The notes: a model not told the origin generated them from the letters alone. Counted from the first letter of the whole stretch, positions 1 through 40,481 are shown. The stretch: DNA of 61,229 bases, filler included, from Hausera hauseri (GCA_046269625.1; 10 parts of 10 records of this genome joined end to end with filler, not necessarily neighbours in it); one strand, 5' to 3'. Numbers and translations: made by a program.

Positions 1-63
1 AATTAGTTGAAATTAAATAGAAGTTAAAAATAATGTTCCTAGTCTTTGAATATTTACTTTTCA

Positions 64-473
64 GGTGAATTGTGTCCCATTTGCATAGAAGTTTCTACAG
101 ACCGAACCACTCTACCATGTAACCATCAATATTGTCCGACATGAATATTTACGTGGTTAAATGAACAGAATACATGTCCATGCTGCAGAAGAATGTGGAA
201 ATTACAGGATGTTTAAACTTAGTAACTAAAACAATAGTGACACTTTTCTGTCGGCATATGTTTTGTCAAATTTGTATAAGTGAACATTTGCGAAGTAGTT
301 GGTTCTGCCTAGTATGCGATAAATGTATAGAATTCTGTTCCCTGGGATTACTGAGAGTGTACACGGACGTTGATGACAGACCATCAAGTACGTTAATAAT
401 AGATGAAGATGAAGAGGATTGGCCCGAAGAGTGGAGAAATCTTAGACCATTTGTAACCACCGAACACTTATAA
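64..473 (+). pseudogene. Tandem RING-finger (C3HC4) protein, disrupted
   Basis: After an acceptor-like ttttcag (ends 63): CPICIE..LPCNHQYCPT*IFTWL..TCPCCR, with a stop at a Cys position. A frameshifted second RING follows (CRHMFCQICI..WFCLVC), then an acidic tail. AATAAA at 485-490. Confidence 0.75.
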
Positions 474-588
474 TTGTGAGTATGAATAAATATAGTAGTT
501 ATTTTGTTATTGAAAGAATTAATGTTAATTTTGTTAAGATACCCAACTTACCTATTCTACATATAACCATCAAGGAAAGTTTATAGCA

Positions 589-783
589 GTGGGACTCCTT
601 TTTGCTATCTGCTTGAACCTATACTCAATCAACCCCGTTACGTTGGCAAATTGCACCTACGAATTTTGCCGAGCCTGTCTTAAAAAATTATTTAAGGTGT
701 CGGTTTCTTGCCCATATGCCGAAGCATCAATAGGATTTGTAGAAATGGACACAAATATTTTACTACTAAAATGTTGTAGATAA
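589..783 (+). pseudogene. Degenerate RING-finger ORF
   Basis: AICLNL..PVTLANCTYEFCRACLKK..VSCPY matches RING spacing with several ligands lost. AATAAA at 783-788. Confidence 0.6.
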
Positions 784-856
784 ATAAAAAATTTTGTATT
801 TGTGATATGAATATGCTTAAATAAATGTAAATATTTCAGTTAAACTGGAGGAATCA

Positions 857-1300
857 ATGATCCTAAGCACAGAATTCAAAACACCTGAGCAGTATGAATG
901 CACAGGCTCATTTCAACCTAACACAATACAATATCTATTACATTATCAAAACAGACAACATGGACCAGCGTCATTTGGTAAGAGAATAATAAACTACGCT
1001 AAATTAAAAGTGTTAGATGATTCCATGAAGGATACTCAAAATAGGAAGATATCATTTCTAAGTCACCCAGACTTACACATCCCAGGAGAGTTAGCACAGC
1101 TGTACGCGAAAACCGGATTATTCCGAACTACAACAGGACGGATCAAATGTCTCCATTGTCAAGGGGAATTCCAATACGAACAGATGAAAGATCGACAAAA
1201 GGAAGTGTATAAGAAATTGTATTCCACTTGTTCTTACTTACTGGATGTTAATGTAAGTAACATACCTGGTAGCAGAGCGTGGTTTACGCTACCCTTGTGA
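857..1300 (+). CDS. BIR (baculovirus IAP repeat)-like protein, divergent
   Basis: NRKISF..HP..LYAKTGLF..IKCLHC..D..YKKLYSTCSYL..VSNIP follows the BIR pattern R..SF..P..LA.AGF..V.C..C..EH..C.F..NVP. The His ligand is replaced by Tyr. Confidence 0.65.
   Translation: MILSTEFKTPEQYECTGSFQPNTIQYLLHYQNRQHGPASFGKRIINYAKLKVLDDSMKDTQNRKISFLSHPDLHIPGELAQLYAKTGLFRTTTGRIKCLHCQGEFQYEQMKDRQKEVYKKLYSTCSYLLDVNVSNIPGSRAWFTLPL
1267..1284 (+). promoter_or_regulatory. Primer-binding site (tRNA-iMet) of BEL/Pao element 1
   Basis: TGGTAGCAGAGCGTGGTT is complementary to the 3' end of metazoan initiator tRNA-Met. It lies 4 nt after ..TAACA (1262), a typical LTR end. Confidence 0.8.
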
Positions 1301-2899
1301 TCCGGGAGTGTAAACCACGACTTCTGATCGTCTTGAGAAGTTTCCATGTCCTTTTCCTTGGCTCCAGTACTTTTTATCTTCGTTATTTTAATGTTGAACA
1401 AGCGAAAATCTTCTTAAGAGACACCAAACTCACAGATCAAGTCGGAGAAGGTTGTGAAAGTGCTTCTGTGAGTTGCGGTGAAATTAAAGAAGTGCCGCCT
1501 TATAAGAGAATGGTTCGGTTTTGGGCAGAGTGCCCATTAAAATTAGAACAAATGGCCATAGTTCTTAAAAGAACTTGGCTTGATACTAGAGTGACGGAGA
1601 ACCGAAAATTGAAGAGTTTCAAAGAGTTGGAAAGGCACTGGATAAGGAAAGAAGAAAGTCACGCTTCCCAGATAAAAAGAGTTATTGAAACGAGTAGGTG
1701 TGAAGATGGAAATACTAAGGAAGTCTTGACAGAAAAGGAGAAGGATGCTAGTTTTAAACAGGTCTATATAAGAGTTAAGGAAGACGTTTTGATCCTATTA
1801 GATCTAGAAAACGTTAAAACGGTAAGCGTCTTAAGTAGCGAAATAGAAAGCAAATTGAAAATACCAAAAGAACTGTTGAAGTTGATTTGTTGTGGTAAAA
1901 GGATAATAACAGATAAGGACGTAGAGGAGTTAGCTCATGGGACCACTATACATCTAAATTTTGGATTAAAAGGAGGAAGCAAAAAGTCAAATAAAAATTA
2001 CGAGAAGAAACTTAAGGCGAGCTCAGAGAGTTCAAAGAGATTGACAAAGGAGTTTAAAACAAGGTTTTTAAGGAAAGACAAGTTGAAGTCCCGGTTGGAG
2101 AATATACATGGAAGATTATACGTCGACAACTCTGAAGAGAGAATTCGGAAGACCTATGATGAATTCTGTGCAATCTATGAAGAAAGCGTCTCAGAAATAT
2201 TGAAATTTCAGATTGAGGCAAAACAACAAAACAGGCCCGACGAATTAGAGTACCTAATTCAAGACAGAGAGGTCTTAAGTCAACTAAATGCCGATATAGA
2301 AGCTACCAGAGGCATTAATTAGTCAATGGAAAAGACATCGTAAAAGTTATAGAAAATATGAAACAGTCGGCGAGTTGAAGAATTGGTTAGAAGAAGAAGC
2401 TGATATTCGCCGTGTATCTGCAGAATCCGCGCATGGTATAGACGTTCTAGAAAAGAAAGAGCAAAGGAGTGTAAAGCCCGATGATTATCGACATAACAAA
2501 GGTAATGACCACCGTCAAAAACATAGTTCGGAAGAAAAAAGAGTAAACCAGCATTACAATCATTTAACTGAGGTCAAAAGGTTCCAAAATACTAAAAGAA
2601 CGTGTTGGGCATTTGCAAAAGGGAATTGCACTTTCGGGAAGCAATGTAAACATTCGCATGGGAGTAATGAAGAAAAGGGTGGAAACCAAAAGAGAATATG
2701 CAGATATTACCAGCATGGGAACTGCAGAAACGGCGATAAATGTCAGTTCGAACATGAAACTACAGAATCAGATATACTGAGGAGTAAAAAACAACACGTT
2801 CTGGGACCTGGCAATCGGAGACAGACGTCAGATGACATTAGTCAAGAGAAGCTGAGAGAACCCTCATTAAGTGGGAGTCAGAGAAAAGTGAACGAGTAG
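1279..2899 (+). pseudogene. Gag-position ORF: ubiquitin-like domain (1756-1977), coiled coil, two CCCH zinc fingers (2603-2755); one stop/frameshift
   Basis: KQVYIR..TVSVLSSEIESKLKIPKELLKLICCGKRI..GTTIHLNFGLKGG is ubiquitin-like. CWAFAKGNCTFGKQCKHSH and CRYYQHGNCRNGDKCQFEH are both C-x7-C-x5-C-x3-H. Confidence 0.8.
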
Positions 2900-2967
2900 G
2901 AGAAGCTCGAGAGTGGTCAAAATAAGAGCTACGTAACGGAGACACAGCACAGAAGAGAAAAACGAAA

Positions 2968-5900
2968 TGTCTTTGAGGACAATTTCGGTGACTGTGCGCA
3001 ATGGGAAGTACGAGGAGAAGATTAACATCCTATTAGATGATGCGAGTACTGACAGTTACATTAGTACTTAAGTAGCAGAAAAGTTGCAGTTAGAACAAGA
3101 ACCAGAATCGATGTCGGTAGAAGTCTTAGGTGGTGAGAAGAGGAGGAGAAAAGCAACAAGGGTCGAATTTCACCTTTGTAGTTTAAATAGAAAGTTAGAA
3201 GTGAAGGTCTCAACACAAACAATAGAGAATGTTGTAGGTAATCTAAACGCGACCAATTGGAACAGATCGAGAAACAAATGGAACCATTTAAAGGAAATAC
3301 ATTTCCCAAAGGTGATAAAATCAGGAAAGGTCGATGGGTTAATAGGAGTAAATTATATTCAGCTTCACCGAGCAATAAGAGATATCCGGGAAGGAAGGAA
3401 AACCTGTGACTCGATTAACACCCCTAGGGTGGACCTACATTGGAGCAATATCAACAACGAGATCATTGCAGAAGCGAACCAACTTTGTTATATGTTTCTT
3501 CTCAAGTGGAGAAGAATTAAAGGATGATTTAGAGAGGTTATGGAGACTAGAAGATATGTTAGAAAAGAACCAACAGTGGACAGAGGAAGAAGAGGGAATA
3601 ATGGAGAGATCTAAGGAAGATATGAGGTACGTTAATCACAGGTACGAAGTCAAAATTCCATGGAAGAAAGACCCACAAGAGTTGCCAGATAACAATAGAA
3701 TTGCTAGGAGAACAAACTAGCAAAGGATTTCAAATTGAAGGAGGGGTACCAGAACCAAATAGACGAACACGAAAAGAAAGGATATATAAAGGATGTCACA
3801 GACGAAGTGGAAAACAATACGACCGGATGGACTCTACCACATTTTCCAGTTGTAATGAGAGATTCCGAGATGACAAAGATTAGAATAGTGTTCGATGCAG
3901 CTGGAACATATCAAAAAACAAATGGACTCACTTAAAAGAAATACTTTTCCCAAAGGTGATAAAGTCGGGAAGGGTCGATGGGTTAATAGGAGTAAATTAT
4001 GTTCAGCTTCACCGAGCAATCAAAGAGATATCCGGGAAGGCAGGAGAACCTGTGGCTTGATTGACACCACTAGGTTGGACCTGCATTGGTCCAACAATAA
4101 CAACGAGACCAATACGTAAGCGCTCCAATTTCACTCGATGTTTTTTCTCGGGAGAAGCGGAACTGAAGGATGATTTAGAACGGTTATGGAACCTTCAAAA
4201 TATGTTAGAAAGGAACCAACCGTGGACAGAGGAAGAAGAAAGAATAATGAAGAAATCCAAGGAAGACATGAAATATATTAATGAGATATGAAGTTAGTAT
4301 TCCATGGAAGAGGAATCCACAGGAATTACCAGGCAATAACCGAGTTGCTAAGCGACGATTATCACTGTTGGAGAACAAATTACAAAAAGATGTAGAATTG
4401 AGAGAAGGATATCAAAAGCAAATAGATGAGCACGAAAGAAAAGGATATGTAAAACAGGTCACAGACGAACTGGAAAACAATACGACCGGATGGACTCTAC
4501 CACATTTTCCAGTTGTGAGGAGATTCCGAGACAACAAAGATTAGAATAGTGCACGGGTCTTAGTTTAAACGATATGATTCATCAAGGGCCAAAGTTGCAA
4601 TTAGACCTAGTAGATATATTAATCAGGTTCAGAAAATACAAGATTGCTATGGTGTGTGATATTACAGAAATGTTTCTACAAATTTGGGTGACACAGGATG
4701 ACCGAAGATACTTAAGATTTCTTTGGAAAGAAAAAGATACTGAGAAAGTCTATGAATTTCAAAGATTTGTATTTAGATTGAATACATCACCATACCTAGC
4801 ACAATTAGTGAGTCGTGTAAACGTTAAGAAACACGCCAAACGTGTACCTAAAGCGGCATGGGTAGTTAAAAACGCTACGTACATGGACGATAGTTTAGTG
4901 TCTGTTAGGACAGAAAACGAAGCAGTAAAAATGTACCGTGATCTAAAATGGTTGTCGAGTCAGGCCAGTATGTTAGCGAGAAAATGGGTCTCAAATTCCG
5001 AGAGATTGCGAGAAATCATACCGGAAGATAAAAGATAAGCGTGTTACCAGATGGTAAATGAAGAGACCAAGACAAAAGCTCTAGGTATGAGGTGGAACGC
5101 TAATAGTGACGTATTCTCCTTCGATAAAAAAAATCCAATTAGAAGAAATTACTACAAAAAGAAATTTTTTGAGCTCAGTAGCTAGAATATTTGATCCATT
5201 AGGGTTTCTTAGTAGTTATTTAATGAAAGGAAAGTTGATTATCCAAGAAATGTGAACGTACGGTGCAGATTGGGACGAACAATTCCCAGACCACCTAATC
5301 AAGCGAGCGAAAGAATGGGTATCATAACAGGGTTTAGATAAAGTTAAAATAAGACGTGTCCTAATAGCCTCCCAGGCACCGTATGAAATACATATTCTGT
5401 GATGCGTCCAAGGATGTTTATAGAGCCGTGGCTTACCTGGTCACCACGGGAGATAAAAGAAAGGGTAACATAATCGTAGCAAAAAGTAAAATATCGCCTA
5501 CAAAGGTAGTATCGGTACCACGAATGGAGTTACTAGCTGCAGTAACAAGAATAAAAGTAGGACAGAAGATTTCGATGGCACTAGAATACGATAACAAACA
5601 GTTGTGCTATTGGAGTGACAGTATGGACGTACTACATTGGGTAAAGCAACACGGGAAGTTGTATAAAATCTTCGTAGCAAATAGAATCAGTTATATACAA
5701 GAAAGGTCAAAAGGAGCGCAATTGAGGTACATACCGACTAAAATTAACCCTGCAGACGTTTTAACTAAAGGTTCCACAATAATTCAGTTATCTGAGAAAC
5801 AGTTATGGTGGCAGGGACCGGAATTTTTAGTAAAGGCCGAAGAAAGTTGGCCAATACAGCCGACCATAAAAGAAGAATTCGATAAAGAAAAGAAGAAATT

Positions 5901-7466
5901 GACGCTACACACGAATATTCCGATTGAACAAATTATCTCAGAAGAAACAGTGCAAGAAAACTCAAGATGGAGCCAACTTATAAACATGAAGGCTAGAGTT
6001 GAAAAACAATCAAACGGATAATCAAAGTGGTGGAGATGAAAGCCAATTATTCAAAAAGGCTAGAGTACTGATATTGAAGGAAAATCAAAAGAATGAATTG
6101 GCTGAGGATTTGAAAGCATTGGAAAGAGGAATAGAACCAAAAGGAAGAAGTTTGATTCGAAAAGCCAACCCAATAATCACAGAAGATGGACTAATTAGGA
6201 GTAATAGTAGGCCGGTAACAAGTGAGTTCTTGCTGTGGGAGTTCAAATACCCAGTAATACTACCAAACAAAAGTAAAATAGCCAAACTCATCGTGGAACA
6301 TTACCACATGAAGTTAAAGCATTGCGGAGGGATAAACCATCAAATAGCGGAGATTTCACAAAAGTATTGGATCCCCGGGTTAAGGAAATTAGTGAAAAGT
6401 TACAACACTTATTGTAAGAGATGCAGAGAATATAATGCAAAAGGAATGAAAGTTGAAATGGCACCAATCCCAGAATTTCGATTGCGAGAGCCTTTAAAAG
6501 CCTTCGATAAAGTAGGAATAGATTATGCTGGTCCCATATTTACGAAACAAGGACGAGGTAGACCTAGAGGAAAAAGATATCTGCTTATTTAGCTGCTTGA
6601 TGAACAGACAAGTGCACTTAGAAGTAGCTACAAACTTGGAGACAAACGCCTTTATAAGGGCCTTTCAAAGATTCATGGCCAGGCGAGGAAAACCATCTCT
6701 TGTGATAACAGATAACGGAACCAATTTTGTAGGCGCCAACAAAGAAGTTGTAGAAATACGGGTCGACTCATATCGAATAAAGCAGGAGTTAGAAAAAGGG
6801 GAGATCAGATGGATATTTAATCCGCCTTCAGCACCACATTTTGGAGGAGTATTTGAAGCGATGATAAAAGCTACCAAAAGAGCACTATATAAGGTACTGT
6901 CAAATGCAGACGTTAATGACGAAGAGTTAAACACGGTATTGATTGAAGTTGAAGCAATCTTGAATTCAAGACCCCTAACTGTATCATCTGGAGATGGAAG
7001 AGATGACGTTCTTTTATCACCCAATCATTTTATAATAGCGGGATACCAAGGGGAGATGGGTGATAGCCTAACCGGGACTACAAAAGCACAGATGAATAGA
7101 CGCTGGAGATATATACAGAGCTTAGTAGATCAATATTGGATAAGATGGCAAAATGAATTGCTAACGAAGTGGAGAGATAGGACAAAATGGGATTCTTGTG
7201 GCGAAAGCCTAATGGTAGGGGAAGATGTTTGGCTACTAGATGGAAACAGTAAAAGAGGGCAATGGCCAGTGGGAAAAATAACAAGAATATTCCCGGGAAC
7301 GGATGGACAGGTTCGGGTCGCTGAGTTGAAAATTGGAGCAGAAACGATGATAAAATCCGTGAATAAAATGTGTAAGATCAATGAGAGGCTAGAGGACTGG
7401 ATGGATAATGATACAGCTATAGTCCGGATTACCCCAAGGAGGAGGGAAATGTTGGAACCCGACTGA
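2968..7466 (+). pseudogene. pol: BEL/Pao pol (PR-RT-RH-IN), multiply frameshifted
   Basis: Ordered Pao motifs across ORFs 3084-7466, including TPLGW, YMDD, FDPLG, FCDAS and integrase DDE motifs. Confidence 0.93.
3273..4550 (+). repeat. Diverged tandem duplication of ~640 bp inside pol
   Basis: About 3273-3890 and 3918-4550 both run from aacaaatgga..tttcccaaaggtgataaa to gattagaatagtg and encode parallel TPLGW..TTGWTLPHFPVV peptides. Confidence 0.85.
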
Positions 7467-8289
7467 CTAGTTGGGTAATCCGGAAGACTTGAAGTATAGA
7501 TAAGAAAGGTGTATATAGTATATATAGAGATATGCGTGCGAGCATGCGTGTGTTTATGTATAGAACGGAGTGAGTGAATGGTAGCGTTGAATATAAGTAT
7601 ATTGTACATATATATTTTATGTTTATCATGTGAATTTTGTGTGGAATTGAGATTGTTTGAGAGAAACCTGCGTGCATGAAGATGTCAGGTATGTGCGAAT
7701 ATTTAAAAGAACAATGTGATGTAATAAAAATGCAAGTGTGACAATTCCTGTCAGCATTCGGAGGACCGGGGGGGCAGGGAAATCGTTGTGGGAGCATTGT
7801 TTTCGCTGCGATTGCATTATTCGTGAGCTACATCATGAAGCTATTGACAGTCCATTGCTACGATTATGTATCTTATACCATCTCCATAGGATGCTAAAAC
7901 AACTGCGTTTAATTCAAACGTATTGATAGGTCCAATTACAATGTTGTATAACAAAAGATGGTTAACTTGCACAGTCCGGTAAGGACCCTCGGGGATAATA
8001 CGACGTGTTTGTGATAACAAAGAATTAAGGTGACGGAGTTTCTAAAGAATTAAAAAAGTATGATGAAAATCGCGTCGAGGCTTCATCAAAGTTGACGAAT
8101 TTCGATGAGACAATCACTATGAAATGACAAGAACAAATATCAAACAATGTCTTAAAATGGATAAAGGTAGTAGAAACAAAATGGAGAATGAACTTGATAG
8201 CTCATTACTCACCGAAGCCTTCAGAATTTATCCTAGGAGTTTATTTTAGGGAAAATTGTCGAATAGGTGGAATGTATAGCAAAATCCAA
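7436..8289 (+). repeat. Polypurine tract (7436-7449) and start of 3' LTR (TGTTGG at 7450), truncated by contig end
   Basis: AAGGAGGAGGGAAA followed by TGTTGGAACC. The same junction occurs at 31063-31086. Confidence 0.8.
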
Positions 8290-9679: not shown

Positions 9680-12383
9680 TAAATTCTGAATAAATTGTGG
9701 GACAAATTAACACGTTCAATCACCTTGATTTCGTTCCCGAATAGACTTTCGATTTTCTTCCGCAGTCCTTTCAGTTTCTCAATAGCAACAGTTCCCTCGG
9801 CCCGACAATCGTTCATTGTCTGAATACCAATATTCGACACAAATCGACAATAGTCATACTTTATTCAACTCCTTCTCGTAACATGCAATAAACTCGCTAA
9901 TTGGAAATGCAGCACGTTCAGTCGGTGTCAGATGGCCAATTCGATCTTTGTTCGGCCAATCTGACGATAGGAAGTACATTAGACAGGACCTATTATGTAA
10001 CATCATAGATCGTGCGTCACATTATCCAATAATTCACCTGAAATTTTCCCAAATATCCGCATCACAAAACGGACCATCTGACCGATGCCGGATATCGGTA
10101 CTACCGAGTGGCAGCCAAATGTCTAACTGATGGTCCTGATTGTCAATTCGTACGCAACACTCATCGGTCCTAAATTCTTGTACATATCCGTTCAGCCAGC
10201 TGCCGTTGACGAGCACCTGTACATGACGGATAGTGGAACTGTACGGCAGTACGGTGTCTGTCTACAACAAAATATGACTGTGTATCGCCAATTAAACATC
10301 AAATACGACAGATTCCTCTTTAATTCGGACTTCTGTTGATTCTGTCGTACGGTCGTCACCTGTTGATGGAATATTTGAATCGGTATTGTAGCTCATTGAG
10401 TACGACTCATCGGAATGTGCTAATGGTAACCAACTGATTTCCGTTGTATCGTTATTTCCCTATGTAACGTCAGCCAGTCACTTGAACAACAATGACATAC
10501 GTCAGATGAATCCATTTTACGCATTTTCTTGGACCCTGGCCCGCCATAGGTTGAAGACGAATACGCCCTTCTGCCTTTGCGATACGCGAAATTGCGTGTG
10601 TTGTCTATTGACGATGAAGTAGGTTCACTATCAGTTGATGTGTTCTTGTCATCAGAACTGCCATCGTCGGACGAGTCATTAATCCTCAATTGACTGTCTA
10701 GTTGTTCAATTATCTGTAAGGTCCAGTTCGTCAATTTCTCCATCCGATGAGGTTCCAACGTCTTCATGGGAATGTCCAATTGTTGCTCCACATCTTCACA
10801 TCTGGATGGTGACAATTGGTTTCATAATGTGTTAGACTTTACTAACGTGTTGCAGTCTTCATCGGAATTATCCTCACATTGCCAATTCAACGGCAATTCT
10901 GTATCGAGGTCATCATCAGAGAACGACAGCAACCGGCATTTTCCGCATTTGTCTACGAACAGCACAATCAAAGCACCATTATTGAACATGACCAACCGCA
11001 TTGCACACTGCGTCTGACATTCATGGCTCGCACCCTCCTGTAATGCCAGTCGTTATTCGGCGAGATCCGATAGTCAGCGGACAAATACCCAAACCCTGTC
11101 CACATACAATCAACGACGGTGCCAAACATACCAATGTGCACACAATACTGTTCCATATACAGCTCCATCACCCACAGTAATTCATTAAGTTGTTGCTGGT
11201 CGACGAAGTCCTGTCGGTCATCAGTGGGCTGCAGCGCCATAGCGGGCAAATCAACAATGCCAACAACTCCGCGATACGTCAAACCTGGATCCTTCTGTGG
11301 ACCAATGCGCAAATGCATCTTGACGAGACGAGAACAACTATACACATAAACTCCATCACACGCACGGCTTTCCAAATTAACCCCGTAGTGAAATGTGATA
11401 ATTTTCGACTTATCAATGGCAAACTGCTTGAATTTGTAAATGATCTGCCTGCCTTGCAGCTTACGACGGCAATCTGCTACCGACGGATCGTCTTCAGCTT
11501 GGTGATTTGATGAGTCAGATTCACTATCGCTCTCATCCCACTGATTCACTTCTGCCCGAAATAATGCAATTTCCGCTATAACAGAATCAGCATTAGCTTT
11601 CCTAGCGAATTATATACCTTTTCTCAATTCTTTTTTCTCCTTCCGCATTATCGATTCCGTACGACGTGCGAAAATTCTATTGTCATACTGATACATATGG
11701 GGTTTATATAGACAATTGATAAGCCGTCGAGGTTGCACTTTAATACCGTTAAGATAAATTTTCATGCGCGGAACCAGGTAGAGAATGGATACGTATTCAC
11801 GCAAACTGTACCGTTCCGACCACGGTCTAACAATGGAAAAAATCTTTAAACATAAAAAATGATCGTACTCATTGTCGGCACCTGGATGCATTAGAATTAT
11901 ATCTTGACTATCGCTGAGAACATCAAGTTCAGGAACACCGCAATCAAGCACACGTACGTTGTAAACAACGACTAAAGTACCATTCGGCTCTTTTATTCTC
12001 TTAAACTGAGACAACAGATTCTCCAATCGTTTGTACGGAGAATATTTAAGAATAATGGACACCTCTATCTCGTGTCGCTGTTTTTCTTCGGATGTTTCTA
12101 CGACGGCCGAATTATTCGATGCTCTGAACGACGGCAACGGTACGACAACTTCTGATATTTTTTCCATTGAGTGAAATGTGTTTGACAACAACATGCATGT
12201 TAAAATTCCGTCTTTCTTGGTGAAAAGAATCATGTCATCACCAATCCGCAAAGCGCCACTGTAGACAGCCGATAAAGGCACAAGGCAAATGGATACTCAC
12301 GATTTCAAACTGATTCCGTTTATTCCAATAGACAGTAAGTCATTTTGGGGCTTTTTGAATTCAATGAGGTCGTGGATCTCATC
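9680..12383 (-). CDS. MORC2: MORC-family GHKL ATPase with CW zinc finger (MORC1/2 type), spliced, 5' exons missing
   Basis: LKSGALRIGDDMILFTKK..VVVPLP, SLREYVSILY..PRMKIY, GVVGIVDLP..QDF, CW finger VQCDKCGKCR..WQC..N.D..C, and a C-terminal coiled coil. The frame is restored by GT-AG introns at 12259-12300, 11827-11868, 11576-11617, 10953-10996 and 10802-10846. The 3' end is approximate. Confidence 0.85.
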
Positions 12384-14314
12384 TGAAAAGATAAATAAAC
12401 AGTTCTAAACACCTTCAATTTAAAATAGACAAAATCTATCGTATAAATTAGTGAAATATAGTATCTATTTTGCCTACATATACAACCTCTCATTCAACTA
12501 GAAGTTGATTCATTACAGAGTGAAGTGAAATTTGATTTCAACGTTAACAAGAACGCAATAAATGTAGAAAAGATAATCTTTGCATTATTTATTACAACAC
12601 AGTTTGTATTTTTATGAAAATCAATACNNNNNNNNNNNNNNNNNNNNNNNNNNNNNNNNNNNNNNNNNNNNTTAATTAATTAANNNNNNNNNNNNNNNNN
12701 NNNNNNNNNNNNNNNNNNNNNNNNNNNGGCATTTTGAAAAAGAAAAAACGAATGCTAAAATTGACTGACATTTTGGAAATTGCGTGACTGAATAACTGGT
12801 GAACAGAAAAGGTTAATAAAAAATTCTGATTGACATTTTGAAAATCACAAGGCAAATACTATATAAACCACAGTAACTGAGATACAATAACCATAAAATT
12901 TAATCTCAAAGTAATATTACTTAATACGAAATTAGTGCGTGGAAGAATATTGGTGAGTAGTTTTTCGTCAATAATGATAATAAATGAATAGTATTATACA
13001 GAAAACAAATACGAAAGTTTACTACTCATAAAGAATTTCTGCTACTGCCGGATTGAAGGATATCTCTGTCATAACATAACTTCGCTGAACGAAATTCTAT
13101 TTATTACCTGATCAGAAGATGATGAATGACCAAGAAAGAAATGGAAATCAACAAGTAACAGAAGAACCTATTGGTAAATTTATCATTAGCAAATTATTTG
13201 ATTGAAAGATTTTGTTCTATATTGAATGTATTGATTTAAGTCATTAGAGTGTTTCTTCATAATTGTGGTTGATGTTTTTACCTTTATGATTAATAGTCGA
13301 ATCATGATTTATAATTAACACTGCGGAAAAAATAGAAATATTGATAATGATAATTCCTAATAGTTCAAGTTAACGAAAATATTCCCAAATGATAAGTACA
13401 AAGAAAAAGAGATTTGAATTTATTAATACATTATTGGATTATTGGGATTAGATCGGTTGCTTGAAGATGACGGAAGGTAGTGAAATTCGTAATAACAATG
13501 ACCTATTTTTGAATTGAATAGTTATGAAAAATAACATGGACGACTGAATGAAAACCTTATGCGTAGAGGAAACGAATGAAATTACTACTGTCAGTAAATT
13601 CTGTCTCATATTCATTATTATACTGTAAATAAGATTATCGATGATCGTCAGGGAGATAATAGAAGATTAATGGTATCACGATTGAAGTGAATGTGAATTT
13701 TCTCGAATATTTAAGGAAGAAATAATTCTATAAGTGGTATTGGGTGAAGCAAAGAATAAATCTGAAATAAATCAAATGAAAGATGTCGATGTTTGGAAGA
13801 TAGAATGTCAATATTGCAATTGTGTCAATATTTAAAGTGAAACTTCTCTAAGAAATTAAATATCGGATAAAGAAGTTATATACTAAATTAAATGATGGCC
13901 GCTATATTTATATGTATATATATATTTTGTACATTGTATTTATTTGTTATACAATAAATTTTATTACTGTAAATGATGTCCATCATAATTATTCGAATTG
14001 TTGATTATTATAACATTAAAACCAATAATTGGGATGTCGTAAAATCTCTCAAAGTTGAAGGAGTAGAGAACGTTTGATTAATTAATATTAAACAATATGT
14101 TTAAAATAATTAAAAATAAATTAAATACGTATAATCAATAATTGACTTGGGAAATCATGAAGTAAATTTAGCATAGTGCGAAAGAAGATTAATGATGTAG
14201 ATGAATTAATACTAGTGAATGGACGCAGATTATTTTTATGATCGAACCGTCCGCAAACTCACCCTTTCAGAACACACAATAAAATATTTATCATAAGAAT
14301 GTTTTTACTCGCCG

Positions 14315-15151
14315 ATGACTACATACATGAAAAGTACGTATTATTTATCATCATTTAATAGATTGTTTATCGATCATTTCATCAGGCGAGTAGAAACATC
14401 ATTAATAATCCTGGCCGAAAGTAATAAGAATTGGACAACCATTCTTCCTTTTGTTTTACTGGGGTGGCGCAACACGCTGTCTACTACCACCGATTGCGCA
14501 CCCGCTGAAGCACTCTTTGGTGCCACAATTTATGCACTGTTTGAGCTCACCGATTTTGACAACACACCGACCGACGAAACTATTAAATCTGCACAAAATC
14601 GCTTTGTTCAGTTAAGTCAGGACTCTTTCGGCAAAATAGTATATGGCGATAAAACATATTTACCCGATTCACAATTCAACGCAAAATTTGTTTGGTGGAA
14701 AAACCATTCACCTGCAGGATTACAACCAAACTATTTAGGACCATTTAGAGTCCTTAACCTAAGTTCACACACAGTTACAATACTCAAAAATGATAAAGAG
14801 CAAAACGTACACATAACTAACGTAAAACCTGCATTCTTCGTCGATGGCACACCGGAATTTTCAGCTGAATCCACACAAAACTTTCTTGATTCCTTCAATT
14901 CTTTCTCCATTCTACCTACAGGGCAACCTGCTACTCCAAAAACTGCATCAATTCAAAAGACTACGCAAAACGACATAACAACTAGTTCTCAAGCTGCTGA
15001 CACGTCAAATCAAAATTTAACTTCCTCTCAACCAACTCAGCAAACAATCAAACAACACAGTAAGAAACATAAGACGGTTACCTTCAGCAAATTCAACAGA
15101 GAACAGAATGTCGACAAAATTCAATGCCTTGTCCATACAAAGATGCAATAG
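14315..15151 (+). pseudogene. Ty3/Gypsy integrase C-terminal fragment, related to the contig 6 element
   Basis: NWTTILPFVLLGWRNT..APAEALFG..YLGPFRV closely resembles 35800-36180. Confidence 0.85.
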
Positions 15152-15989
15152 CTCATTAAAAGTATTCTTTCCACGTTATTGTTTCAATCACATCAAAAAT
15201 TTGCTTCTTTCAATAGTTTGCCTACACCTCACTGCTTTGTCTTCTTGCTTTCGCCCCGACAGTGTCATATTATAACGCGGACTCGGACGCCACCACAATC
15301 CACTACAATCCGCCACAATCCCCAATGGGTGCTATTAATTCTTTAATGAATGATTACTACAATCAACGACTAAATTTATTTGTTGTTAGCTATTCGAAAA
15401 TAATTCCATCGTTTTTGTAAAGCAAAAAATATGAACAACTTTTGGAATGTAAAGGTTTCATGCAATTTCCTCAATTATCGGAAGATATGCAAATTACCCT
15501 AACATTTGGCTATCATTTCAGAACCTGTGTCAAAACTATCAAAAAAAATAAAAAAAACCAAAACGAAATCAGTGGACAGTCAATTTAATTTTTCTGAATT
15601 CTCAATGAATTCGAAGGACATTTCGTCGGTCTCACCAACGATTTCTCAACAATCATCATCATTATTATCACTTCAGTTTTCCTTATTTGGCCTCTCGTCA
15701 CTTTAGTAATCAATTTCTATTGTATCTTTAAATGTATTTTGGTATCCCATTACATTGAGTATCCAAGGAAAAGGTTCAAATGGCACATTTCTTTCTCATG
15801 CAAGACGAAATATATTTAAAACGTAAACTTAACATGTAAAAGAATTTAATTTTTTGACGCAAATAATTATCATCAATGTGATATTTATTTTGTAGCCAGA
15901 TTTTATTAAGCTATGATCAGCCATAATGATACACAAATATAAAGTTTTGTAATGGTAACAAAAGATTAGTGGAAATCAATTTTTAGAGT

Positions 15990-18900
15990 GTTTTAAAATT
16001 TTGAACTAAAGATTTGTTGTTTGCATCTGTTCGTTTTTCTCTTACGGAGCAAACCATTTAAGAATATCTTAGAAATAACACCCAACATTAAATTTCGTCG
16101 CTCTAGTACAATTACTCGTTCGATTTCGATACCGTAAAACGATTTCTTCTCTTCATCTTGTCCAATAATCATTTGCCAGTCTCTGTATATATCTCCAACG
16201 CGCAGCCAAAGAGCATTGACGAGTAAAATTAACTTAATTATTAATCCCTCCATTATAACTTGGTATGATGAAATGATTTGGTGATAATATGACATCATAT
16301 TTTGTGTATATTACAGTACTTGTAATAGGCCTGGAATTGATAATTCCATCTACAATAGTTATCACTGTGCATAGTTCTTCTTCGGTTATATTGGCATTCG
16401 TCAAAATTTTATACATAGCTTTCTTAGTTGCTTTTATCATAATCTCGAAGACCCCTCCGAAGTGTGGAGTCCCTAGTGGAGTAAATATCCATCGAATCGC
16501 GCTCTTCCCAACTGTTACTTTGCGGCATATGTATCAATTCTTACTTCACAAAGTTCGCTATTTGCACCTACGAAATTGGTCCCATTGTCGCTCACGATAG
16601 TATTCTGTTTTCCGCGACGGTTCATAAATCTCAATAAGGCTTGTACAAAGGAGTCTGTAGATAGATCTACAACCAATTCCAAATGAATCGCTCTACACTT
16701 CAAGCATGTAAATAAACATATGTATCTTTTTTCTGTCGACATGCCTCTGCCTTTCTTGACTGGGATTGGTCCTGCAAAATCTATTCCCACAACACTAAAT
16801 GCTCTGAGTGGTTCTTGAAAATGGAATTCTGGCAATGGTACCATTGGTTGTTGGACTCCTTTGGCACTATTTTTACGGCACACCTTACAATCATGTTCAA
16901 CCTTCTTTATTAACTTCCTGAGTTTGGGACACCAATACGATTTGCTTATTACAGCGTATATGTGAATAATCCCAGCGCCATATTTATGTTGTACATGATA
17001 GTGTTCTATTAACCACTTGGTAATTTTCAATTCTTCTGATAGTACTATTGGGTACTTGACAGACCAGTCTAGGTACTTTATCAACGACAAACGACTATTG
17101 CTCCTAATTACTCCATCACTGCCGAATATAGGGGCAGCTTGTTGAATATTGCTACTTCTTTTTACTTCCTTCCCATTTTTAAGTTAATTGATTTCCTCCT
17201 TGAAGTGTTCTTCTTGTTCGTTTTTTATAATATTGATAAAAACATCTTCCCTAGTTAAATCTTTACTACATTCCTTTAACATCTGCTCCTCGCCATACCT
17301 ACTCCATTCAGAATTTCTTTCAATATCCGTTAATATAGCATTTATGTTTTCATTTGTTTGGGTTGAATATGTTTTTATAACTCTCTTTTCCTCATTTCTG
17401 CCTCTTCTAGGATTTTTGGTTGTTCTGGCCAAAGTTTTTCTTCCAACTTCAGGAACATAAATCCTTCCCACCATATATCCAATTTTGCGACTTCTTCCAC
17501 AGTGGTTCTTCTTCGAGAGATAGTCTGCTGGGTTCTGTTTAGTGTTAATATAATTCCATTTTGACCCTTCACTTTTCTCCTGGCTGAAACCTATTCTATT
17601 TGCAACATAGGGTTTATAGCACTTCGAATATTGTTTGATCCAAAAGAGAACATTCATTCTGTCATTACAGTATGTTATTTTTACATTTGCTACTTGTAGA
17701 ACCTTCGCCACCTTCATGCACAGTTTCACTCTTATGCACACAGCCATCAATTCCAACCTAGGGATTGATATAGATTTTATAGGGGCGACCTTTGACTTTG
17801 CCGCAATTATATTTGTTAATGTTTCTCTGTCACTTATACACCTAATATAAGCTACTGCTCCATAAGCTGTGCTGGATGCGTCACAGAATACATGAATTTC
17901 TTTGTTATTGGTACTATCTATTCCTAACCACCTTCTTATTTTTTTTTGCTAAAGCACTTAGGACGTTTCTTTTGGTCAATCCACTTTTGCAATTCCCTAC
18001 GCCGTCAAAAGTTAAACAGTCTTCTTTTGCATTCCACTTAAGTCCTAAAGTTTTTGACGTACAATTGACCTCACTTTTGGAGGCGTATTCCTTTGCTTTT
18101 TCGTTTTCCGGTATCTCGCGATATAATTGGTCAGAATTCGATAACCATTTATGGGTCTTCATTTTTGCTGTTCCCCAGATTTCTTTCAACTGGTAGTATA
18201 AATTCATAGCTTCACTTTCTGTTTCAATGGAATCTATGCAGGCATCCATATATGTTGATTGTCTAATTGTTTCAACTGCCCGTGAATATTTTTTCTCAAA
18301 TATATCTGCGTTTACTTGACTCACAAGTTGTGCCAAGAATGGTGAGGCATTCAATCTGAATACAAGTCTTGTGAACTGATAGGTTTCGATCTTACCATTT
18401 CTTCTCCACAGGAATTGTAGGAATTTTCTGTCATCTGGTGAAACACTAATTTGTAGGAACATTTCAGCTATGTCACAAATTAGTACGATTTCATTTTTTC
18501 CTCATTTGGATTAGGATGTCCACTAAATCTTGCTGCAACTTTGGCCCTGAGTGTAACAAGTCATTAAAACTTTTACATTTTAACTTCGCAGCTGCATCGA
18601 ATACTATTCTAATTTTTTTGGTGGATCTATCCGGTTTCAGAACGGGGAAATGTGGCAACGTCCAATAATTTGCTTCGTTTTCCTTCTTTTCTACTAATTC
18701 CACATATCCTTTTTTATATGATCTTTAATCACTTGTTTATAATCTACCTTCACCGAGTTATCTGAACTTAATTTCTTCTCCAGATATTCAAGCCTTTTTC
18801 TGCCATGTATCTGGGCATTGGTATCTCTTCTCTCTTGCTTTTCCAGGGTAGAGAAATCTCATACCTTCCATCTTCGGTCTTCTTCATCTTATCTTTTGTA

Positions 18901-20044
18901 ATTTGGAAAATTTCTTTGTCCAATTTCGACTAGGTTTCTTTTTCTTTAACCGAATTCTCTATCTCCCACAATCTTTTTATATGTTCATTCATTTCGTCTA
19001 CCCTCGTCCAGTATGTTCTTACTAAATTGTTACTTACTAAACTGCCTTTTCGTTCATTCAGAATTACGACACATGTCCAACCAAGGGGAGTCAATCTAGC
19101 TATTGATCCTCCCGGTTTCCCCGAAACTTTGTTTATGGATTTATGAAGGTGTAGGTAATTTGCACCTATAATCCCATCTACTTGCTCATTTTCTCCCACA
19201 CCTACAAATTTAATCCCTTGTAAGTAGGACCATCGTTTTTTTCTATTGTCCAGTTGACAACATTCATGTTTCCTGTTGGCCTTCTAATGGGTAGTGCGTT
19301 GAACTGTTCACAAATGCTATTGTCTAAACTTTGCAAGATCATGTGAACTTTTGTCATTTTTTGCTTTTGTTGCATACCCACGACCACTGCCACTGTAATA
19401 TTTTCTTCTTTCCCACTGAGCTTCAATTGTCGTGCAATATCTTCTTCCAGGAAACTATCAGTACTAGCGTCATCCAATAGCATGTTCACTTTAATATTCT
19501 TGTTTCCGTTAATTAGGTATACTGATATGGTCCTCAAGGCTATTTTGTTTGGCATTTCAGATTTTTCTTCCTTCATCTTCGTCATGTAAATTCGTTTTTC
19601 TGAATAATCGCATTTATTTGTTTGGTAAGAAGTATCGTTCGATTGTGATTTTGTTCCGTCGGTATCTGTAGAGGTTTTGAGTTTTTCGTCTTTATGTAAA
19701 TTTCCATAAAGAATTTTTGAGTAATTGACTTCTTATCTTAAAACGTTTGGGGAATTTCCATGTTTAAACCAACAATTTCTACCGTACCTGCAATCTCCAC
19801 TTTGAAAATATAGACAAGGTTTCTGATTTATAGTCTTATAAAAACTCTGATCTTTCTTTTCATGTCGGTATGCACATGATTCACCAAACTGGCATTTGCC
19901 AGCTAGGAAATATTTATAAGGTCTCCGTTGGATCTCCTTATTTTTCCAACAATTATCACTTCTTTCAATTCTTTTTCCTTTAGTACTGAACCAATCTTCT
20001 CTGTTGACTTACTCCTTTCCTCCTTTTTCTCGGTAAAAAAGGAA
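15990..20044 (-). mobile_element. BEL/Pao retrotransposon copy 2 (decayed, partial) with tandem CCCH fingers
   Basis: Minus strand: YKYFLAGKCQFGESCAYRH and CLYFQSGDCRYGRNCWFKH (~19758-19920), then LLDDAST, TPLGW, KIRIVFDA, YMD, GIDFAGP, DNGTNF, SPNHFI. Confidence 0.92.
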
Positions 20045-20144: not shown

Positions 20145-20634
20145 ACCGGATTTTACATGCATCGTATTTCAATCGGGAAAGTGTCGTATTATGGGTTGTC
20201 GCAAACCAATCACAGCTGACAGACAACTACCATTCGGAATTGTCATCGACAAAATCCAATCAATAACGGTAACGACTCAGTTAGGCTACCACCAAACAAT
20301 CAATCTGTACAAATTAGCCATGGCCACTGAGTGTGTTTATGAGCCCGAACTGTTTCCTGCACTGAGACTGACATTGTTTCGGCCACTCTGTGTCAATGTT
20401 TTTAGCAGTGGAAAAACTGTTGTACTCGGTATTCGGACAGTAGCCTATGAACCGATTATTAATCAAATTAAAAACCATATAAATGTTTTAGTGAATCAAA
20501 ATAATGTACTCTGCATAACAACAAACCATAAATATCATTCCCATGCTCATTCAGACATTACTGCCATGGAAGATGATGACGACAAAACGATTCTACTCAA
20601 TGATGGTTGTGAGAATGATAGAAGTGCAGATTAG
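20145..20634 (+). CDS. TATA-binding protein-like ORF (5' truncated, divergent)
   Basis: Both TBP repeats are visible: TCIVFQSGKCRIMGCRK and INLYKLA..YEPELFPAL..VNVFSSGKTVVLG. Confidence 0.8.
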
Positions 20635-21350
20635 TCGTGGTTGCTTGGCTACAAAACGAACAATTCTAATGTCAAATTTCTGGAAACGAAAACACAACCT
20701 GTCCAACAAATAACAAAACCGTTTGATTGCCTTTAGGGCGATTATATTGAAACGAAAAAGGAACTTGCTCAGAAATCATCAGCATCAAAACCGACATTAA
20801 AAAGGCAAATGGCAATGATTGGATTACGTAAACGAAAATCAAAACCATCGCGTCAAACAGATATTTGTACCGAAACGAATTTTTTGCAACTGTGAAATGC
20901 ATTTTGTGCAAACGCCCGTACTGATTTCATTGAATGATCCCGTGTCTCTATGCGCCACATGTACAGCTATCGTGTAGAACGGCTTTCGGGTAAAAATTTG
21001 GATAAACGTTCTGATGCACTGTATCAATCAAACATGTATTTAAAGTTAAACGAAACGATCGTGCAACAGCAATCTGTCGTTTTACCGGCGCAGAAAACCA
21101 AGTTGTTTGATTTTATCGGTCGCGAAATTTCTAATGTACCCGTTGATGATTTAAAGTGTCGAATATTGAATTACAAGGATATAAGGAAAAGCCGGTATCA
21201 GAAGCCCGATTTGGCGTGTAGCTGAAGCACATTTTAATAATTAATTAATATTGTAGTTGGTTTGTTTTGTTTTACCGTTCTTTTTTCATTAACCCAATTA
21301 ACGAGTATAAATATACGTGTAATTTTAATATTGGTATAAGAATAGTGATA

Positions 21351-21815
21351 ATGAATAATGTAAACATTATCTTAACAAACGAATATGCCGTTGTACCATG
21401 ACGTGTTACTTTAAATAGTGCAGGCTACGATGTGTTTTCCAATGTCAATGACAATTTCGGACAGCACAATTAAATGCATAAGGACTGAGATTCGATTGGC
21501 GATTCCACCCGTTTACTACGGCCAACTTTTATCTAAAAGCGGATTGGCAAAACTGGTACTTACGGTTGTGTGCGGTGTCATTGATTCAGACTTTAGTGAT
21601 GAAATTAAAGTGTTTCTGAAAACCAATCCGGGAAACCGTATGCTGTTTGGAAAGGCAGTGCAATCGCACAAATCGTTCTTCTTCGATGTGAAGAGGCGGA
21701 ATTCAGTGTAATGTTACCTGAACAATGGGGATTCTTTTGCGTCAATGAAGCAGCAACAACACGAAATGAACGCAAAGAATTTGGCTTTGGTTATATGGAC
21801 AAAACCACCTGTTTA
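21351..21815 (+). pseudogene. dut: dUTPase pseudogene
   Basis: Motifs in order across stops and frameshifts: SAGYDV, SKSGLA, GVIDSDF, IAQIV, R..GFG. TATAAATA at 21306. Confidence 0.85.
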
Positions 21816-21894
21816 ATGATTTGTGGTGATAATAATATTAGTTAATTGTTTTGCTTGTGTTGTAAACAAAAAACGATTTTGTACCACATAAGTA

Positions 21895-22386
21895 ATGGCG
21901 ACTGGATTTATAGATATTGAAGGTTTCCAAGATGATAATGCCCAGTACATAATAAAGGAAATATGCTCTATGGACGTCGGTAACATTTTCGAACCGCTTG
22001 TGTACATATTCAAGCCCGGTATTTTGTGGAAAGACCTGACGGAAAAAGCGAAATTTACAAGTGGATTTCTCTTTTGACATCGTCCTGGACTTCACTGGTA
22101 TGAAGGCAATTCAATTTTTTGTGTTGCATATATTCTGGGAGGGATTTGTGATTGTTTTGACATTGAAAATACAATATTTTACATTAAAGATCAAATTGGC
22201 GGACAAAAGTTTACACAACTCCATTCACAGTTTCCTTATTTGCGAAAGACGACGTATTCTACAACATCGAGCAACTAGCTGACCATGGTACCTGACAATA
22301 TCCGATGTTCGTATCGTGATCATGATCCACATAGTGCTTACAAAAAATATCTACGGCTTTGTGTTGACTATATTTCATGGAAATAA
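21895..22386 (+). pseudogene. DEDD-like nuclease typical of Polinton accessory genes
   Basis: FIDIEGFQ..YIIKEI..FKP..W..L..(H)GLHWYEG, frameshifted. Confidence 0.55.
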
Positions 22387-22490
22387 ATAAATGTATTTCT
22401 GTTTCTTTTTTCTTTCCGTAAATAAAGTAGGCCGTATTGGTCAGTTGAATAATTCAAAAACTATAAATACGGGTAGGAAATAATATCATC

Positions 22491-22709
22491 GTGGAAACAG
22501 TTATTCAACTAAAGCATGTGCAAAATTTTGATGGATTATCAATTTCAGAATTGGTACGATGGTGGCAAGTACTTGATAATGAGTTGGTGGCGAGAGATTT
22601 TGGTGATTTTGGATGTAAAGAAGATTTAGTGTCAATAGCATTGATGACAACAGATTGCAGCTCTATAGAAAATCTAATTATTGTGTTAAATCAAAAGTAC
22701 ATTCACTGA
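22491..22709 (+). pseudogene. Small unknown ORF in the viral array
   Basis: Follows TATAAATA (22462) in a gene-dense array. No recognisable motif. Confidence 0.3.
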
Positions 22710-23883
22710 TAGTATGATACCATTTACTTTAATACTGTTGAAAGGGTACGCGGTGAATTAAAGAACTTAAAAAAATAATGGAAAAAGTACAAGACTGTCA
22801 CTTTATGTGTAAAAGAGTTTATGTAAACAAAGAAAAGTAAATACTGTATTCTTAATGTGCGGTCATCTCGTTGTTTGTCAAATGTGTTCCACCAAAGTAA
22901 CTCACCAGTATCCAGAATGTAAATGTGCTATAATGGAAATTGTACACATTCATTACTAATGACTTCTTCAATGACGGAACATGCGCTTCAATGACGTGGA
23001 GGTTATTTGTATCATTGTTATAATAGACAATACTCACAAAGTAAATATTTATTGTTTACAATGAAAACAAACCGGTGTAAACAAATTTGATATAAATATG
23101 CATGTAGTTTCGTTTCACGTTTGTCTTATTTAAACAGTGTCTTTGGAAAACAATTAAGTAGGTGACAGTCTCTCAAAAAGCCACGGTATAGCGAATATTT
23201 GCTCGAAAATTCCCGATTGTATAATGCATAAAACTTACATTACCTGCGCAACGCTATTCAATTGTCATTGACGCGAACGGTCAAAATCAAACCGGTGAAA
23301 TATTGTCTATTGCTAAAAGAGATCAGCGACGATGATTTGGATACAATGGAAGACACCATTTGAAAAGTTGACAGTAATTTGGCTTTGAGTAACAATATCC
23401 GAGATACATCGTCGATTTTTCTAAAAGGAAATATGGCGAAAATTGTCAGTTCACATGGCGGAGAAACAGCAGCAGCAGTTTTTCCACCGGAAAGAGCTAA
23501 AAGCTACCTGACATTGAAGTTCATAGGATTCAAGGAAAGGAGCGGCGTCAAATCCCCAATATGAAAAATGGGAAAGTTTACTATGATTTAACTGACTTGC
23601 TTTGTGTGTTTTTGTGATGTTAGTGATTCTCCGATCAATAAATAAATGTATTCATGTTACATATTTTGTTTTCTCGTGCAAGGTTATTGTTTTACTTTTA
23701 CTTCTATCATAATAATAATAGGTTAAATAACCGAAAACAAAACACAAAAGACACCGAAAAAATACCTTATTGGAATATAGGAAACAGTACACATCGGATA
23801 ATTGTCAATGATTGCCACAGTAATTGAAATGAACTGAACTGATTTGTCTGAACCGACAGAGCACCAATTGTTTGGAGGTGCGT

Positions 23884-26460: not shown

Positions 26461-26898
26461 TTTATATGTTAGTGTGTGTAGTGGTCATAATTTAATAACA
26501 CACTGTTGATTTTGAAAACAGTGCTTCTAAAAAACAACACAGTCTCGACTTCAAATGTCCAGTATTTTGGGAATGAACTTTACACTAAAGAGCGAACAAA
26601 TCATGAGAAATAATGTGACCTTTTCATTAATGTGAGCTTTACAATATTTCTGTTACACATTTGGTGGTGGTACTCATTATTAGTATGTAGGCACACGGTC
26701 ACCACCTCCTTGTGAGTAATAGTAGTACTCAATTATGAGCTCGTGGTAATTTGTGCGTCGTCGTCGTCGTCGTTGTCGTTGTACAAAATAAAATTCACNN
26801 NNNNNNNNNNNNNNNNNNNNNNNNNNNNNNNNNNNNNNNNNNTTAATTAATTAANNNNNNNNNNNNNNNNNNNNNNNNNNNNNNNNNNNNNNNNNNNN

Positions 26899-31076: not shown

Positions 31077-31400
31077 TGTTGGAACCGACCGTTTTGTTGG
31101 GGAATCCGGTCAAACTTCAACGGGAGAGGTATAGTGGATATAAAAGATGTATATAGTGTATATAATACATAAAACATATATATATAGGTATGTGTTTATA
31201 AATGTATATAAGAGTGCTCACATGTTGATCGAGTGAAATGTATAATGGCTGATACTATGATTGCATCGTGTCTAAGAGCTGTATCAAAAATTAGATTGTT
31301 AAGGGTACTAAAACAATGGTGAATGCAAACAACTCCTGGCGGCATTCGCTGGGACGGGGGAATGATGACTGTGACCAAAAGTAAAAAAGTATAACGTGCA
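31077..31400 (+). repeat. Start of 3' LTR of BEL copy 3 (right end undetermined)
   Basis: TGTTGGAACC after the PPT. The TA-rich tract and the motif at 31329-31360 are shared with copy 1. Confidence 0.7.
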
Positions 31401-37706: not shown

Positions 37707-37710
37707 TCAA

Positions 37711-40480: not shown

Positions 40481-40481
40481 C

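Follow-up and report, generated by a model that had tools for sequence, protein, structure and literature searches.

Elements of the Belpaoviridae (BEL/Pao, Semotivirus) are characterized by the pol order PR-RT-RH-IN with Peptidase_A17 and DUF5641 domains, a primer binding site (PBS), a polypurine tract (PPT) and LTRs starting with TG; the ICTV describes a PBS for tRNA-Arg or tRNA-Gly and LTRs of 0.2-1.2 kb (PMC8742986). The available part of a survey of 7,861 elements gives a median LTR length of 383 and a maximum of 2,427 (PMC3118150). LTR elements gain foreign sequence via 5' transduction or abnormal template switching, as exemplified, in the text available of PMC13317346, by Wis-2 in the BARE-2 LTR. 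The giant planarian gypsy-type elements Burro and GYPSM1 are LTR elements with BIR, RING and ubiquitin/SUMO-like motifs, and the accessible portion of the source places those of Burro in a 4,873-aa ORF1 of the internal region (PMC6431247). An anti-apoptotic role of Burro1 has been reported, according to the accessible text of PMC13465017. BIR and RING are also the domains of the IAPs, which include XIAP and cIAP as well as proteins of baculoviruses, nudiviruses and nimaviruses. In cytopathic pestiviruses (BVDV Osloss, CP1 and CP Rit) a ubiquitin unit follows host-derived sequence in the polyprotein, and host hydrolases cut after this unit, giving the authentic N-terminus of the next protein, as described in the available part of PMC8310069.

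We analyzed 61,229 nucleotides of Hausera hauseri DNA (GCA_046269625.1), here called the window, which consists of ten unrelated contigs joined by linkers (44 N, TTAATTAATTAA, 44 N). The element described here lies on the first contig (1-8289), which is cut on both sides; the remaining contigs contain decayed retroelements, a DNA-virus-like element and a tandem repeat. The body and the 3' end of the element comprise the following features.

1273-2322, plus strand: ORF with an open linker, a ubiquitin-like domain (Ubl) and a helical Gag N-terminus (sequence, Pfam)
1759-1977, plus strand: ubiquitin-like domain ending in L-K-G-G, directly 5' of Gag (Pfam ubiquitin, E 2.9e-5)
2603-2755, plus strand: two CCCH zinc fingers (Pfam zf-CCCH_4, E 4.7e-13)
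2952-7466, plus strand: degenerate BEL/Pao pol with protease, RT, RNase H (Peptidase_A17), integrase and DUF5641 (Pfam)
7436-7449, plus strand: polypurine tract, flanked by the inverted repeat CCGGATTACCC / GGGTAATCCGG and conserved in a related element
7450-7780, plus strand: 3' LTR head with a TGTTGG start, TA-rich, common to the related element at 31077-31362
7781-8289, no strand assigned: rest of a long LTR, or flank, running to the contig end

Judged by the domains of its pol, the element is a BEL/Pao element, with which it shares the domain order, Peptidase_A17, DUF5641, a PBS, a PPT and the TG start of the LTR. The order RVT_1, Peptidase_A17, Integrase_H2C2, DUF5641 is colinear with that of four related proteins (P0024-P0027). 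The pol region is decayed: about 645 nt are duplicated internally (3258-3860 / 3902-4523), and frame breaks and stops are numerous. The capsid domain is mostly missing after the ORF at 1273-2322; an alignment to the relatives is limited to the end of this region and is weak, and DUF1759 is present in P0024-P0027. The element differs from described BEL/Pao elements in its Ubl-GG before Gag and in its CCCH fingers, which stand where the relatives have CCHC-type knuckles and which are common to the related element at 26899; in addition, the relatives have an ORF whose start lies 5' of the PBS. The element is not a Burro element: its pol is Pao-type and not gypsy-type, and its BIR and RING modules lie 5' of the PBS, are truncated and broken, and are not found throughout the clade.

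The ubiquitin-like domain had been overlooked in the preliminary description of this DNA. Its best PDB matches are Rub1 and ubiquitin (E about 4e-4), with the alignment running through the GG. A domain that ends in GG directly before Gag has the layout of a ubiquitin-type processing signal, and the same arrangement is found in P0024-P0026. The first Met of the ORF is at about 1510. A search for longer relatives of this ORF among 4178 candidates of 612-2000 aa found none, which is weak evidence.

Upstream of the PBS, the contig contains an array of RING and BIR coding sequences.

73-186, plus strand: RING finger 1, C3HC4 type (Pfam zf-RING_2, E 9.4e-8, read with X at the stop)
165-473, plus strand: ORF with RING finger 2 (201-317) and an acidic tail (Pfam E 1.7e-4; Atlas RING clusters 0.93)
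538-783, plus strand: ORF with RING finger 3 (601-720) (Pfam zf-RING_UBOX, E 1.7e-6)
784-856, plus strand: AT-rich spacer, 20% GC, with an initiator-like TCAGT at 836
857-1267, plus strand: 5' third of an intronless BIR and RING IAP gene with its own ATG (protein search, tblastn, fold)

The three RING fingers that had been reported for 1-1262 are indeed present (best Pfam E values 9e-8, 1.7e-4 and 1.7e-6), and all three are defective. RING1 has a stop codon (142-144) at the sixth ligand and keeps seven of eight zinc ligands, RING2 lacks the first Cys and likewise keeps seven of eight, and RING3 keeps five of eight, with the first Cys, the His and the last Cys missing; none of them has the full set of eight zinc ligands of a C3HC4 RING E3 ligase. 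AATAAA signals are located after the RING2 ORF (485) and at the end of the RING3 ORF (783). The spacer at 474-537 is similar to that at 784-856, with 17% GC, compared to 35-37% GC in the ORFs of the array, and TCAGT at 836, upstream of the IAP ORF, is what we take to be an initiator-like motif. Short AT-rich spacers, AATAAA after two ORFs and TCAGT give the array a layout that appears to resemble compact viral gene arrays. Like pol, the array is decayed.

Alternatively, the spacers 474-537 and 784-856 could represent short introns. A host gene joining RING and BIR by splicing was considered on account of GTGAGT at 476, GTAAGT at 1253 and the AT-rich spacers, and splice phases fit for only one candidate intron. 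This gene model is not favored because the IAP begins with a Met of its own that corresponds to the start of an IAP relative (P0144) and because the relatives are uninterrupted ORFs.

The BIR ORF, starting at the ATG at 857, corresponds to the first 137 codons of a family of 370-480 aa IAPs with BIR and RING. A search of 1.84 billion representatives with the IAP fragment gave 16 matches, all 16 with a BIR, the best being P0001 (E 1.4e-21). P0001, P0002 and P0005 are unnamed proteins of 370-480 aa with an N-terminal BIR and a C-terminal RING; P0144 was found by a later profile search (42%), and its start aligns with the window Met at 857. The nearest relatives (P0001, P0002 and P0144) are unnamed, intronless-looking and 370-400 aa long. 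Pfam detects the BIR with an E value of 0.005-0.007, which is under the gathering score, so that from the proposed Pfam scan the three RINGs came out as matches and the BIR only below threshold. The predicted model (pLDDT 80) nonetheless has the BIR fold of IAPs, with XIAP BIR2/BIR3 as best PDB matches in Foldseek (probability 1.00) and further matches to viral IAPs. The fragment also shares with known IAPs the motif after the BIR and differs from them in having one BIR, an altered zinc site and no C-terminal RING. The Cys-Cys-His-Cys zinc site of IAPs is incomplete in the window BIR, with the zinc-site His, present in at least 90% of 13 aligned sequences, replaced by Tyr (1208-1210).

For P0002, P0003, P0004 and P0007 the tblastn similarity stops at 1267, the first base of the PBS. 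Immediately before, GTA AGT AAC ATA CCT encodes V-S-N-I-P, matching the motif V-x-N-[IV]-P of the IAP relatives, of which the Asn is kept in at least 90% of the 13 aligned sequences. The C-terminal half of the IAP including the RING was found neither in the contig nor after the 3' LTR head. From these alignments the BIR ORF is a cut IAP gene, severed exactly at the PBS. Neither an intact IAP nor an intact E3 is present in the cargo. The BIR-like ORF reads on through AACA and the PBS, as had been noticed before, and ends with a stop at 1298-1300.

At the junction, three features lie close together.

1259-1262, plus strand: AACA, candidate LTR end, with a 4-nt inverted match to TGTT at 7450 and forming part of the IAP Asn-Ile codons
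1267-1284, plus strand: PBS, TGGTAGCAGAGC, one occurrence in the window
1278-1319, plus strand: strong RNA hairpin over the 3' part of the PBS (z -4.05; 0 of 200 shuffles as stable)

The PBS at 1267 is present as described and unique in the window, where this word is expected 0.04 times by chance. We take it to be of the tRNA-iMet type, which by this assignment of ours sets it apart from the tRNA-Arg and tRNA-Gly sites of the family; no tRNA genes for a comparison were found in the window. In the IAP frame the PBS reads GSRAW, and this frame is the polyprotein frame of the intact relatives. In this copy the IAP ORF and the Ubl-Gag ORF are in different frames, one frame break apart. TAACA, which ends 4 nt 5' of the PBS, does not prove an LTR end, since it codes for residues conserved in IAPs and since AACA is found 0-5 nt upstream of 4.8% of the positions in 1-1262. 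For the earlier argument that TAACA followed by a PBS makes the upstream sequence a 5' LTR, TAACA is weak evidence; the conclusion, a long LTR, is still the likeliest one on other grounds, namely the ORFs of the relatives. Since all three complete relatives with a Ubl start their ORF upstream of the PBS, the likeliest assignment of 1-1266 is to the element, as part of a long LTR.

These relatives were identified by an integrase search among proteins of 1134-3611 aa, which yielded 667 relatives; the figures that follow are from the best 120 of the 667. Among these, 82 are 1700 aa or longer, DUF5641 is present in all 120, and Pfam ubiquitin is present in three, which are the top three matches and intact polyproteins (P0024, P0025 and P0026; E 1e-11, 3e-9 and 2e-15, respectively). 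P0027 begins at the last residues of the Ubl. P0024-P0027 and the BEL elements of the window stand on one side of a branch in the integrase tree (SH-aLRT 99, 122 rows), and the same grouping is obtained in the RT tree (SH-aLRT 82, 122 rows); both are quick trees with midpoint roots, and the RT tree was made without P0116, which has no RT match. GSRAW or GSRAC is located 60, 130 and 135 codons after the predicted start in P0024, P0025 and P0026, respectively, and 151-224 codons ahead of the GG end. The chance of such open frames at 40% GC is about 2e-2, 2e-4 and 2e-4. In the remaining 116 of the best 120, a PBS-like peptide near the start was found in four, each with at most 26 codons before it, when searched with peptide patterns for two tRNA types that we assumed. 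Three deep PBS-like peptide matches (P0056, P0076 and P0134) were set aside as chance, and one protein with a match to the GG pattern (P0129) has no ubiquitin match and lies outside the P0024-P0027 group.

The sequences ahead of the PBS peptide differ between the three intact polyproteins and are mutually unrelated. The leader of P0024 matches DNAJA1 (E 7e-5) and by eye is DnaJ-like nearly up to the PBS peptide. The leader of P0026 matches Peptidase_C48 (Ulp1-like) with an E value of 0.004, which is under the Pfam cut-off, and Ulp1 was not found in a PDB search with this leader. The third leader is a tandem repeat. P0024-P0026 are singletons (one member and one contig each) from three sources and are known as proteins only. 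A BIR or RING was found in none of the best 120 of the 667 relatives; the ubiquitin feature that the clade has in common is the Ubl-GG before Gag.

A scan of prokaryotic genomes (GTDB) yielded 42 candidates, of which seven were distant BEL loci (34-37% identity); none of the Ubl region of P0026, the IAP and the LTR pieces of the window had a match. BEL-type contigs within bacterial MAGs (L001, L002, L003, L004, L006 and L007), likely eukaryotic contamination, have an additional long ORF (400-980 codons) downstream of pol.

At the 3' end, the PPT and LTR start match those of the related element (blastn E 1e-13). The alignment of the LTR head beats shuffles for 7451-7600 and marginally for 7651-7800, and an AATAAA is located near 7722. 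The two related 3' LTRs are alike for about 330 nt and then diverge completely. No match was found for 7781-8289 in the related element, 1-1266, the C-terminal half of the IAP or Pfam; in six frames of 7700-8289 and 31300-32018 Pfam gave nothing below E 0.1. Hairpins near 7745 and 31335 are no more stable than shuffles (z -1.0 and -0.6). As stated in the preliminary description for 1-1262, 1-1266 does not match the visible 3' LTR region (7451-8289), neither by blastn nor by alignment (score 265; shuffles, 264 on average), and blastn found no copy of the conserved LTR head 5' of the PBS. Between the two ends of the contig 1-8289, which is cut on both sides, no repeat was detected by blastn and alignment; a second copy of 1-1266 and a target-site duplication are not visible because the contig ends on both sides. 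Comparing 1-1266 and both LTR tails to the window by tblastx gave nothing at E 0.01, and an Rfam scan of 1-8289 gave two matches, both far under the gathering score. The LTR is either about 330 nt long with its 5' copy missing, or over 2.1 kb; the latter length, if the upstream sequence is part of the LTR, would be unusual and not unprecedented.

Two further BEL elements of the same group are located in the window (12728-20044, minus strand, and 26899-32018), and neither contig reaches a PBS. The one at 26899-32018 has the CCCH fingers, the PPT inverted repeat and the LTR head in common with the element described here. About 300 nt into the LTR, where the similarity ends, both have a second G-rich PPT-like run (7766-7781 and 31352-31362). 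The tail of the related LTR (31721-32017, minus strand) contains one frame with only 4 stops in about 218 codons and no Pfam match, possibly a decayed gene.

We propose, at about even odds, that a subclade of BEL/Pao initiates translation in captured sequence that lies 5' of the PBS and varies between elements, and that the RING/IAP array is dead cargo. The element on this contig would be an old, decayed copy of a subclade with Ubl-GG before Gag-Pol. Translation would start upstream of the PBS in foreign coding DNA specific to each element and run on through the PBS (GSRAW) and the linker into Ubl-Gag-Pol. By analogy to the ubiquitin insertions of pestiviruses, host deubiquitinases may cut after the GG and free Gag-Pol with a fixed N-terminus, whatever the leader. 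Such a cleavage would make captured leaders harmless, and the leader would supply a start codon and perhaps a promoter. The pestivirus insertions are recent acquisitions of host ubiquitin in an RNA virus; here the Ubl is diverged, clade-wide and part of a retrotransposon, and cleavage is predicted.

The leader is probably located in a long U5. During reverse transcription the sequence 5' of the PBS is copied first, so that a leader that persists would be U5 and present in both LTRs; a U5 is preferred over a lost LTR because it is unlikely that the intact relatives all lack a 5' LTR. The LTR would then consist of the conserved head of about 330 nt and a long variable U5, together over 2.1 kb in this copy. 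Capture may have occurred by 5' transduction or template switching, with the captured AACA as new integrase end. Compared to Wis-2 in BARE-2, the captured piece here adjoins the PBS and, in the arrangement of the relatives, is in frame with Gag-Pol. The leader in this copy would be a compact RING-RING / RING / IAP array of a kind known from DNA viruses or giant retroelements, a passenger cut at AACA inside the IAP and not a working IAP or E3. The domains, the truncation point, the Ubl-GG, the clade and the frames open across the PBS in relatives are direct observations; we infer the U5 location, the start of translation in the leader, the GG cleavage and the route of capture.

Several observations weaken the proposal of captured leaders. 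No second copy of 1-1266 is visible on the contig, and the IAP and Ubl-Gag ORFs are out of frame with each other, in a copy in which frame breaks are frequent. P0024-P0026 are protein records, and one of them could derive from a chimeric transcript. Each has a Met 16-43 codons after the PBS, so that initiation upstream of the PBS is not forced. Furthermore, the AATAAA signals at 485, 783, 820 and 988 in the array would tend to truncate the genomic RNA, which counts against it.

The junction might instead be a one-off, with an element that lost its 5' LTR, or was made without one, situated in the IAP gene of an endogenous array of DNA-virus-like or giant-retroelement type. The LTR proper would then be short, and 1-1266 would be flanking DNA. 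Such a junction could stem from failed plus-strand transfer, leaving a cDNA that stops at the PBS, or from a deletion that occurred later via AACA microhomology. This would fit the break at exactly the first PBS base with TAACA accounted for by IAP codons, the compact array with its short spacers, own ATG and polyA signals, and the two related 3' LTRs being alike over only about 330 nt. In addition, the window contig 20145-26798 is a decayed DNA-virus-like element with an IAP-type RING, and endogenous nimaviruses carry BIR genes, according to the accessible part of PMC10871703. Left unexplained, however, is the in-frame, coding-like read-through of the PBS in three of three intact relatives, and a simple insertion predicts the remainder of the IAP after the 3' LTR head, which was not found in the window. 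We therefore regard a one-off junction as unlikely, if still a serious candidate. Far less probable is an assembly chimera of two unrelated pieces fused through a short repeated word close to the PBS: the assembly is fragmented and its contigs are repeat-rich, but the junction, which is free of gaps and tandem repeats, repeats the in-frame GSRAW layout of three independent proteins from three sources.

That a working IAP/E3 toolkit is maintained by selection in the LTR and suppresses apoptosis of the host, as has been reported for the planarian Burro1, and has merely decayed in this copy, appears improbable to us. The BIR and RING modules are real, the available parts of the sources provide a precedent in the gypsy-type Burro elements (PMC6431247) and a function for Burro1 (PMC13465017), and intact full-length IAP relatives exist on contigs of 1.9-16 kb. 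In principle, the BIR could be spliced to a RING exon of the 3' LTR from the candidate donor GTAAGT at 1253, but the phase of this donor does not fit the acceptor before RING1. Moreover, of the roughly 400 codons of the IAP the first 137 remain, without the RING, each zinc finger is short of ligands, and leaders vary by element, with BIR or RING in 0 of the best 120 of 667 relatives. The working apoptosis and ubiquitin toolkit that had been suggested is thus not supported: the IAP is truncated without its own RING, its His ligand is lost and the RINGs are all broken.

Other contigs of the window also contain genes or gene fragments. The contig at 20145-26798 encodes, on the minus strand, a TBP-like protein, a dUTPase, an IAP-type RING (22813-22959) and a type-B DNA polymerase; it has no significant tblastx match to 1-1266. 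In a gypsy-type element at 32119-42750, an apparently intronless ULK4-like kinase gene is joined to a dynein AAA_7 fragment; this insert stands between two copies of the gag region (87-90% alike) and looks like mRNA capture by an LTR element. Two gypsy-type elements (42851-47067 and 56424-61229) contain a fragment of a Monjiviricetes-type fusion glycoprotein upstream of protease and RT, which corresponds to the env-before-pol order of Burro, as given in the available part of PMC6431247. An intronless MORC-like gene with an internal stop (10968-12296, minus strand; Morc6_S5, E 8e-18) is possibly a retrocopy. A retroviral-type env fragment (55448-56323, minus strand; TLV_coat, E 1.5e-8) is unlike the other elements of the window, and 47168-51572 consists of CACGTG-rich tandem repeats of about 180 nt each.

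For the gypsy-type Burro, LTR-element cargo with an anti-apoptotic role has been described before, and in the copy studied here the cargo is dead. What looks new is the fusion of a Ubl to a BEL Gag together with a reading frame that begins before the PBS in exchangeable foreign DNA; a description of a Ubl in a BEL/Pao Gag polyprotein was not found in the literature searched, which did not cover Repbase, Dfam and subscription journals. Tentatively, and with somewhat less than even confidence, we suggest that in a BEL/Pao lineage not described so far the U5 end of the LTR is repeatedly replaced by host or viral gene fragments (IAP with RINGs, DnaJ, Ulp1-like). Translation would begin within these fragments and continue through the PBS, and the lineage-wide GG cut site of the Ubl would leave Gag-Pol unaffected by the choice of leader. 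Confirmation, at the level of DNA, of the Ubl fusion and of the frame that begins before the PBS would show how genes can be picked up at an LTR end without loss of Gag function, and it would provide a testable route for the origin of retroelement accessory genes and a natural parallel to the ubiquitin insertions of pestiviruses. If the swapping of leaders is true, these elements would be built-in shufflers of gene fragments with LTRs over 2 kb, and a leader that helps the host, for example an intact IAP, could be kept, as in Burro1.
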